The notes under the pieces: model-generated | Seen by the model: the letters and a program-made list of their open reading frames with translations, nothing else | Told to the model about the DNA's origin: nothing | Databases searched by the model: none | In this document: piece by piece, positions 50,172 to 51,347 of the stretch | Layout of the letters: every line of letters starts with the position of its first letter | How positions within the stretch are numbered: the first letter of the stretch is position 1 | Source: Candidatus Fermentibacterota bacterium | Lineage (GTDB): Bacteria > Fermentibacterota > Fermentibacteria > Fermentibacterales > JCC-6 | Reading direction: 5' to 3' | Assembly (NCBI GenBank): GCA_963845085.1 | Contig: CAWJQI010000005.1 | Location: 448,502 to 512,501, forward strand | DNA: 64,000 bases | Program-made: the position numbers and the translations under genes

Positions 50172-50197
50172 GGCCGGAGACCCGAAGGTCCCCGGCC
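50172..50197. terminator. Hairpin between convergent genes, with a U-tract on the minus strand
   Basis: GGCCGGAGACC-CGAA-GGTCCCCGGCC forms an 11-bp stem with 1 mismatch. It is preceded by AAAAAA on the + strand, which is TTTTTT after the hairpin for the minus-strand gene. Confidence 0.5.
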
Positions 50198-50212: not shown

Positions 50213-51217
50213 CTACCGAACCACCGTGAACCTGGTCAGGACTGCATCGCTCGACGATGTACGAAGCCTGGCGAAATAAACGCCGGACTCCTCGATCGTG
50301 ACCGGTACAACCCCGCCCGCTTCGAACTCGGCAACAAGACGGCCTGCGGTGTTGTAGACGCTGACCTGGCCTGTTGCCCCGGCGGGAACCACTGTGCCGA
50401 TGCTGAGATTGCCTGTCGACGGGTTGGGCCATGCGTTGATGGAGAGGGAACCGATCCCTGCGCCCTCGAAATCCTCGACGCCCGTGGCGGTGTCGGGGAG
50501 GTCTTCGAAGGAGGCGTTGAGCACTTCATGTGTACCCGTGCTCGCCTGAACGTAGGTTATCACATCGAGGTTGTTGAAGATGTGAACGGCGGGATCGAGT
50601 GTGTAGGTCCCCGTGACGTTGATGGTCTGGGGGTAGGGGCCGGTGATCGAGATGGCCGTACCCGAGGCGCCCATGGGCCAGGCGCGGGGCTCCCACATGA
50701 GTTCCTGGCCGTTGTAGACGCCATAGGGCGTGCCGGCAATTTCATGGCTTTCGAGGATGGCGGACCAGATCTTGATCTCGCCCGATACACCGGGATCCTG
50801 CTCGATGGTGAGGGTGTAGTAGGCGGTGCCGCCGGTGGCATTGCCCACCATCTCGACATCGATGTCAACATAGCTCGGAACGGCGAGCCTTGTGTTGATG
50901 AACCCCTGCACGACGGTCTGGGTCCAGCCGATTTGCTGGCTGACTCCGTCAACCTGGAAAGTGGGGGTGTAACCCCAGTTGTACAGCGCATCACGTGCGG
51001 TGACGTAGGGCCCTGAACCCGGGCCGTTGTAGAAGAGGATCTGCGGGGCGACATCGCCGGTGGCGAGATAACCGTTGATCATTGTCTTGACAGCTGACCA
51101 GCTGCTTCCGCAGGAGCTTCAACCGGTCTGGGTGTATTCCTCGAAGAGCACCACTCTCTCCGCGGCGGTGGCGATGCCTGTGACGGCGGCAATGACCAGC
51201 AGGAGAAGCAATTTCAT
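50213..51217 (-). CDS. Candidate selenoprotein: secreted thioredoxin-fold/Omp28-like protein with a T9SS C-terminal sorting domain and an in-frame UGA at 51119..51121
   Basis: The ORF track lists only 50213..51082. The same frame continues upstream through one TGA to ATG 51217 (GGAGG at 51224..51228, 6-nt spacer). That ATG encodes MKLLLLLVIAAVTGIATAAE-RVVLFEEYTQTG-U-SSCGSSWSAVKT-MINGY... The C-terminus WPNPSTGNLSIG...VSVYNTAGRLVAEF...GVYFARL is T9SS CTD-like. Confidence 0.6.
51090..51105 (-). promoter_or_regulatory. SECIS-like hairpin 3' of the in-frame UGA
   Basis: mRNA nt 17-32 (U of UGA = 1) read G-CAGC[UGGUCA]GCUG-U. The loop core GGUC lies at nt 23-26. This is the same core as, and within 1 nt of the position of, the E. 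coli fdhF SECIS as I recall it. Confidence 0.4.
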
Positions 51218-51347
51218 CCGTGACCTCCGTTCAGTTTTCGATTCACTTCGTATGTATATGGGCAAGAGCACCGGTATGCAATACCCGGGTGATCATGAAG
51301 TCGCCCGGGCATCGGCACGGACGCAGACAAGGGCTCGATTCCGCGGT

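Follow-up and report, generated by a model that had tools for sequence, protein, structure and literature searches.

A co-varying hairpin behind an in-frame UGA as a very probable selenocysteine insertion sequence for a secreted thioredoxin-like protein of Fermentibacteria

The question raised by this locus is whether a UGA codon near the 5′ end of a gene ends translation or is read as selenocysteine (Sec) at the instruction of an RNA element just beyond it. The gene lies on the minus strand (50213..51217) of a 64,000-nucleotide (nt) stretch of a Candidatus Fermentibacterota genome (assembly GCA_963845085.1, contig CAWJQI010000005.1, positions 448,502 to 512,501), which we call the window, and it forms a single open frame of 334 codons plus a TAG stop when its internal TGA is read as Sec (U). 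An initial annotation, made from the sequence alone, drew attention to a stem-loop a short distance 3′ of that UGA and likened it to a selenocysteine insertion sequence (SECIS). We consider it very likely that this hairpin, 51105..51090 (-), is indeed a bacterial SECIS (bSECIS), and that it serves a secreted thioredoxin-like protein. The evidence consists of a conserved UGA with cysteine counterparts, a hairpin that co-varies, the presence of Sec machinery in the genome, a loop motif shared with other genes, and the predicted fold of the protein.

Counting the U of the UGA as nt 1 (window position 51121), the hairpin occupies nt 17-32 of the minus-strand mRNA, which reads GGU UGA AGC UCC UGC GGA AGC AGC UGG UCA GCU GUC AAG. 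Both the mRNA and the fold quoted in the initial annotation, with GGUC at nt 23-26, match the sequence exactly. The four Watson-Crick pairs and one G-U pair that it assigned to the stem are also correct, but the stem is longer than it supposed, for U22-A27 adds a sixth pair to G17·U32, C18-G31, A19-U30, G20-C29 and C21-G28. The 5′ arm GCAGCU (51105..51100), the GGUC tetraloop (51099..51096) and the 3′ arm AGCUGU (51095..51090) thus make up a helix of five Watson-Crick pairs and one G·U, free of bulges and worth -7.1 kcal/mol, with 19 nt (nt 4-22) between the UGA and the loop. Such an arrangement is uncommon in the genome: a stem of at least 6 base pairs (bp) starting at nt 15-19 and closing a 4-6 nt loop that contains GGU follows 115 of 82,000 TGA trinucleotides (0.14%), and eight of those 115 are the in-frame UGAs of candidate selenoprotein genes.

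The strongest evidence that the hairpin matters comes from its relatives. Among 58 loci fetched from Fermentibacteria genomes, 52 carry TGA at the same column with an in-frame signal peptide upstream, and three paralogues carry Cys there. A hairpin at nt 16-34 with a G-rich loop is kept in all 52 UGA-bearing loci, so that the comparison with orthologues proposed in the initial annotation came out in favor of its reading, compensatory changes included. In a 48-nt alignment free of gaps, the pairs from 17-32 to 22-27 are 96.8% paired across the 52 loci, and two-sided compensatory changes occur in four of the six pairs (24 cells); none of 500 shuffles reached the observed values, and sliding the register of the helix lowered pairing to between 6 and 59%. 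RNAalifold, given no structure, predicts the same helix and detects no other conserved structure in the 48 nt after the UGA. When changes of pair state were counted on a tree of the proteins from which the hairpin columns had been left out, pair 19-30 proved to have changed seven times and pairs 20-29, 21-28 and 22-27 four times each. The CGGC/GCCG and CAGU/ACUG variants arise in separate clades; CGAC/GUCG stems also occur, as does replacement of U22-A27 by G22-C27. Clades that encode other peptides at this point (SSAGAV, STAGAV) form an equivalent hairpin in the same place, with CGGG, CGGC, AGGC or AGGU as the loop; GGUC, GGCC, GGAC and GGGC are the other loops found over the 52 loci. This hairpin is the local minimum-free-energy (MFE) structure of nt 13-38 in 50 of the 52, often extended to 7-9 bp, and the helix lacks a bulge in 50 of them; its energy averages -8.0 kcal/mol over the orthologues (range -3.7 to -12.0). 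To judge by these alignments, 52 related genes share a genuine hairpin that is conserved and co-varies.

A skeptic might answer that the hairpin is a by-product of coding, the peptide S-S-W-S-A-V happening to be encoded by a palindrome with a CAGCTG core that has no function as RNA. The peptide SSWSAVK is conserved, CAGCUG is inherently self-complementary, and folding of the single sequence gives stability at background. Synonymous sites tell against this idea. The serine eight codons after the UGA is UCA in 34 of 34 loci, and UCA makes up 10% of the serine codons of the genome; the alanine that follows is GCU in 41 of 47, a codon with a genome usage of 13%, and GCU gives way to GCC only together with a change of A19 to G, as all five GCC cases accompany G19. 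Codon entropy is 0-0.6 bits within the hairpin as against 1.8-2.3 bits for serine and alanine codons outside it, where all synonyms are used. Selection on the protein cannot, on these codon counts, account for sites frozen in this way. Residue replacements, moreover, come in pairs that preserve the stem, namely S/A to G/A(GCC), S(AGU)/T(ACU) and D(GAC)/V(GUC); the SSAGAV and STAGAV clades build their hairpins at the same place from other sequences; and the Cys forms lose the hairpin. Covariation and synonymous constraint together largely refute the coding explanation, to which we now assign very little probability.

A second explanation, in our judgment equally improbable, takes the UGA for a true stop that closes a 32-residue leader, with re-initiation at the AUG at 51082 and the hairpin serving translational coupling or attenuation. 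Gene callers and all database entries do begin at Met 51082, and UGA is the commonest stop in the genome (1198 of 1741 long open reading frames), for which reason a genome-wide reassignment of UGA is excluded. But Met 51082 is not conserved, many loci having Leu or some other residue in its place; protein conservation continues in frame from one side of the UGA to the other; the signal peptide that a type IX secretion system (T9SS) cargo needs sits 5′ of it; three paralogues have Cys at the UGA column; and residue 33 occupies the CxxC position in a thioredoxin fold modeled with confidence.

The anatomy of the gene bears directly on this point. A Shine-Dalgarno sequence, GGAGG, can be read at 51224..51228 (-), 6 nt 5′ of the ATG. 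Residues 1-20, MKLLLLLVIAAVTGIATAAE (51158..51217, -), make up a hydrophobic signal peptide, helical in the model from residue 2 to 16, and the UGA at 51119..51121 (-) is codon 33, the first position of a UxxC motif in a column occupied by TGA or Cys in relatives. Translated with TGA as U, the active-site motif reads T-Q-T-G-U-S-S-C, or U33-S-S-C36. The resolving cysteine, Cys36 (UGC, 51110..51112, -), is invariant in 49 of 49 aligned proteins while the third position of its codon is free (28 TGC, 24 TGT). The gene ends with a sorting domain at 50216..50443 (-), and an intrinsic terminator with an 11-bp stem followed by T6 lies at 50172..50197 (-), 16 nt 3′ of the TAG. The start chosen by gene callers, Met 51082, costs the studied protein 45 residues. 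The 94 database homologues retrieved are all about 289 residues long, spanning 87% of the query, with called starts that fall after the UGA; 50 or more loci keep the upstream frame and the signal peptide in it, and hydrophobic N-termini ending in A-x-A occur in all loci. Public annotation almost certainly truncates a secreted thioredoxin-like selenoprotein at its UGA. Correcting this systematic error returns to the homologues the signal peptide and active site that they lack as annotated. The copy in Candidatus Sabulitectum silens (L063:1300-1570) retains both the UGA and the hairpin region that encodes SSWSAVK, and shifts frame about 25 codons downstream; the shift is either an assembly error or the mark of a pseudogene. 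Several related genomes have two or three copies of the gene, some with Sec and Cys forms side by side.

The Cys forms deserve attention in their own right. Three loci, L055, L058 and L060, have TGC or TGT at the UGA column, and in none of them can the 17-32 helix form (+4 to +10 kcal/mol). They nest among the Sec forms on a midpoint-rooted tree, which suggests replacement of Sec by Cys with loss of the SECIS. Two of them, L055 (1369-2355) and L058 (1369-2352), carry another hairpin of 9 bp at nt 17-38 after the Cys codon, with a CUCA loop and energies of -10.1 and -7.5 kcal/mol; one C-to-U change keeps its pairing, and L060 has none. Some of the structure found here may accordingly play another part, and this strong hairpin lends some color to a third explanation, that the studied hairpin works in pausing for targeting, in mRNA stability or as a nuclease site, with Sec insertion directed by another element. 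The hairpin of L055 and L058 differs from the studied one, however, in sequence, register and loop, and it is confined to two close relatives; it could be a reshaped relic, an element of different function, or chance. The 48-nt alignment offers no other conserved structure after the UGA that could direct insertion, and a hairpin with a GGU loop also follows the UGA in genes unrelated to this one, SelD and a second family described below. We hold this third explanation to be as remote as the first two, and return to the hairpin as a bSECIS.

If the UGA is decoded as Sec, the product is a protein of recognizable design. Its C-terminus, residues 259-334, scores 31.7 bits against the T9SS type A sorting domain TIGR04183 (cut-off 23) and also matches PF18962; a sequence profile search of the PDB matched it to the C-terminal domains (CTDs) of gingipain and endonuclease, and returned matches to T9SS CTDs alone, none for the protein body. 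The T9SS translocon SprA is present in the genome. In Pfam, the body gave sub-threshold matches only, to DUF1223 and Omp28. An AlphaFold2 model based on 49 relatives (mean predicted local distance difference test score, pLDDT, 86.3) shows a thioredoxin fold, a beta-sandwich and the C-terminal sorting domain; the thioredoxin fold covers residues 21-112 in the order beta-alpha-beta-alpha-beta-beta-alpha, helix 34-51 having U33 at its N-terminus. In the searches made, the family is restricted to Fermentibacteria.

The 2.45-Mb genome encodes what a SECIS would need. SelB (309 bits) has the SelB-wing_2 and SelB-wing_3 RNA-binding domains, SelA (499 bits) adjoins selB, SelD (347 bits) itself contains one in-frame TGA, and the tRNA-Sec (71 bits) has the anticodon UCA. 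A genome scan that searched for hairpins first recovered further elements of the same kind, whereas a strict scan of in-frame UGAs by coding score missed SelD. This genome has two paralogues of the studied gene, at C4:51844(+) and C5:786648(+), both with 7-bp stems and GGUC at nt 23-26, which brings this HBP35-like UxxC T9SS cargo to three copies. The SelD hairpin has 8 bp and a GGU loop at nt 26-28, and 20 of 22 SelD loci examined in relatives have a GGU or GGC loop. Five members of a second secreted family, with a CxxU motif, also appeared in the scan; AGGU lies at nt 23-26 on an 8-bp stem in four of them, and GGU at nt 28-30 in the fifth; 35 genes of that family keep AGGU, AGGC or AGUU loops. 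Because other genes with in-frame UGAs carry like GGU-loop hairpins, the studied hairpin matches what the SelB of this lineage evidently reads. A lineage-specific picture of the SelB target emerges, a loop of GGU/GGC type placed 23-30 nt beyond the UGA, along with a well-supported set of SECIS elements from a candidate phylum that has no cultured model, compensatory mutants of natural origin included.

These other genes have features of their own. The active sites of the two paralogues read FEEFTSTG-U-GYCGSSWSAVK and FEYFTQTG-U-GTCYSSWSTVK. SelD (C5:740476-741835, L073) is a selenoprotein with the motif ..YAACAG-U-AGKMSPGRL.., and a Cys-rich N-terminal extension, CSCPLECERHGDCVACRRFHELLGKQVYC, precedes its core, the open frame being 453 residues long against about 310 positions in the core model. 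The second family consists of putative selenoproteins of about 205 residues, unrelated to the studied gene, with a signal peptide and C-x-x-U followed by (L/M)(R/H)YQVVVL.SE; its SECIS, in which an AGGU loop caps a stem of 8 bp that begins at nt 15, is coded by the conserved RYQVVV peptide. Pfam and NCBIfam scans gave it no meaningful match. There are eight matches to it in this genome, several in tandem; members were located at C4:277362(+), C4:762587(+), C4:763224(+), C5:711884(-), C5:710725-711333(-), C5:145090(+) and C5:289038-289547(-) (loci L107-L136). It occurs in 35 of 41 related genomes, with up to nine matches listed per genome; a single in-frame TGA is present in nearly all members and missing from a few, which are probably Cys forms. 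A further candidate in-frame UGA lies at C1:93242 (-), in the context ...ITLPYG-U-CTGSTNPQVVDWNNDGMLDI, an FG-GAP/VCBS-like repeat, with a 7-bp hairpin and AGGUC at nt 26-30. It may belong to a third secreted selenoprotein; Pfam and NCBIfam scans of this candidate gave nothing meaningful.

The base on the 5′ side of the UGA shows a constraint as well. In the studied gene it is the U of a glycine codon, GGU (51122..51124, -), and over the loci compared (L015-L071, L073, L081-L104, L107-L135) position -1 is U in 52 of 52 Sec loci of the family. Glycine at this position is always GGU (47 of 47), and a downstream glycine codon uses all four synonyms. U also precedes the UGA in 22 of 22 SelD genes of relatives and in 10 of 10 candidate selenoprotein genes of this genome. 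The second CxxU family has U in 26 of 35 cases, C in seven and A in two, and its codon -1 is UCU 16 times although UCU supplies 6% of the serine codons of the genome. The three Cys paralogues have A, A and G. We rejected an absolute rule for the lineage on the strength of the second family, where 26 of 35 amounts to a strong bias. U at -1 may be a lineage-specific effect of 5′ context on recoding. Tentatively, and with slightly more doubt than conviction, we suggest that Fermentibacteria possess an unusually large exported selenoproteome, made up of at least two unrelated and heavily duplicated families, with U at -1 as part of the recoding context.

How the hairpin would act we infer from the SelB-SECIS complexes of E. 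coli and Moorella (reviewed in PMC8659212). While the UGA occupies the A site, roughly the first 12-14 nt downstream should lie in the mRNA channel of the ribosome, so that any hairpin at nt 9-20 would be melted; the 6-bp helix, starting at nt 17, would then stand just outside the channel with its GGUC tetraloop displayed. The C-terminal winged-helix domains of SelB could bind the G-G-U of the loop and so tether SelB·GTP·Sec-tRNASec(UCA) at the A site, where Sec would be inserted in competition with termination by release factor 2 (RF2). The outcome would be a 334-residue exported protein, presumably surface-located, with U33-S-S-C36 on a thioredoxin fold, followed by the beta-sandwich and the T9SS sorting domain. 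A selenol active site on a T9SS-tailed protein would mean that strict anaerobes of digesters and sediments carry out Sec chemistry at their outer membrane or beyond it.

Several observations weigh against the bSECIS reading, in addition to the second hairpin of the two Cys paralogues. Folding of the 60-nt and 40-nt segments that follow the UGA shows no gain over dinucleotide-shuffled sequences (z = +0.50 and +0.76), which is the result that the initial annotation had named as speaking against its proposal. Neither segment has the proposed hairpin as its MFE structure, and the 17-32 helix is absent from that of the 60 nt (-12.8 kcal/mol); the helix becomes the MFE structure only on removal of the first 12-14 nt. 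Rfam yielded no SECIS-like match, either over the whole window at gathering thresholds or over 50950-51250 at E ≤ 10, the only two hits being noise. The A16-U33 pair that many orthologues have is missing. The bulged U17 of the fdhF SECIS of E. coli has no equivalent here, and the lower helix of about 40 nt that includes the UGA in fdhF has none either, RNAalifold finding no conserved pairing outside nt 17-32. Finally, the bSECIS model summarized in PMC13188914 sets a threshold of -7.5 kcal/mol, which the hairpin narrowly misses at -7.1 kcal/mol; many orthologues, with stems of 7-9 bp, pass it. Single-sequence stability is a weak test for an element of 16 nt, and the significance of the hairpin rests on comparative data and not on folding energy. 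The initial annotation was right to warn that the stem is short, yet this short stem is conserved in orthologues. Its SECIS-like interpretation is borne out by the covariation, the frozen synonymous sites, the Cys counterparts without a hairpin, the Sec machinery, and the like hairpins of SelD and the second family.

The least likely explanation of all, one that we regard as practically negligible, is that the functional structure is the global MFE fold or the competing hairpin CUGC[GGAA]GCAG (nt 9-20; 51102..51113, -), for although the latter exists as the initial annotation cautioned, is worth -5.0 kcal/mol, reaches 91% pairing over the loci and gains from the absence of the 17-32 helix in the 60-nt MFE structure, its pairing equals shuffle expectation (225 of 500), its loop varies freely, it would overlap the region covered by the ribosome during UGA decoding, it starts only 5 nt beyond the UGA, closer than the 16-37 nt of the summarized bSECIS model (PMC13188914), and it shows no covariation, so that the caveat is settled in favor of the SECIS.

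How does the studied hairpin, read as a bSECIS, compare with systems already described? The nearest is the fdhF SECIS, for which we used GUC UGA CAC GGC CCA UCG GUU GCA GGU CUG CAC, a sequence checked with a 47-nt query that matched 5,419 E. coli genomes and was 100% identical among the matches listed. Both elements are part of the coding sequence and follow the Sec UGA directly on its 3′ side, both have a short apical helix closed by an A-U or U-A pair, and both present a GGUC tetraloop, at nt 22-25 in fdhF (G23/U24) and nt 23-26 here. The initial annotation had proposed that the two loop cores are identical and their distances from the UGA within 1 nt of each other, and the actual sequences agree, the offset being 1 nt. 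G23 and U24 of the fdhF loop are the reported contacts of SelB (PMC8659212). The two genes differ in the base before the UGA, which is C in fdhF and an invariant U in the studied family. The bSECIS consensus of Zhang and Gladyshev (bSECISearch), as summarized in PMC13188914, calls for a loop of 3-9 nt, an upper stem of 4-16 bp, 16-37 nt between UGA and loop, a G at loop position 1 or 2, as a rule with G or U after it, and an energy of -7.5 kcal/mol or lower. The studied hairpin, with its 4-nt loop, 6-bp stem, G-G loop start and 19-nt spacing, agrees with that geometry, and the other hallmarks are found here too: covariation in UGA orthologues, a Sec/Cys pair, and SelA, SelB, SelD and tRNA-Sec in the genome.

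As for the protein, full-text literature searches returned no paper linking selenoproteins with Omp28 or with Fermentibacteria. A distant relative is NF045500, 'Omp28-related selenoprotein', also known as 'Hypothetical protein GOS_C', a UxxC protein predicted from ocean metagenomes. In both, an exported Omp28-like protein has UxxC close to its N-terminus. The similarity is weak but repeated, with E = 0.0016 over residues 14-240 of the studied protein and matches in 15 of 49 relatives, the best at 8e-05. The studied protein differs in its T9SS sorting domain, and it is not a member of the NF045500 equivalog because it scores 17.9 bits against a cut-off of 200. Judged by sequence similarity, it is a distant cousin of the predicted GOS_C/NF045500 selenoprotein.

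The closest protein of known structure is HBP35 of Porphyromonas gingivalis, a 35-kDa hemin-binding surface thioredoxin that contains a thioredoxin motif and is a cargo of the Por/T9SS pathway (PMC2907840, PMC3120885). It is the top full-length structural match to our model (5Y1A; Foldseek E = 2.9e-15, TM-scores 0.59 and 0.62), with the same succession of thioredoxin-like domain, beta-sandwich and T9SS C-terminal domain. The two differ in that identity is 16% in the structural alignment, HBP35 has Cys where the studied protein has Sec, and no link to heme is evident here. On the model, then, the studied protein would be the Sec counterpart of the surface thioredoxin HBP35. The RNA element behind it is of a standard bacterial kind, closest to the fdhF SECIS in loop sequence and position, and its mechanism is the ordinary one and not new.

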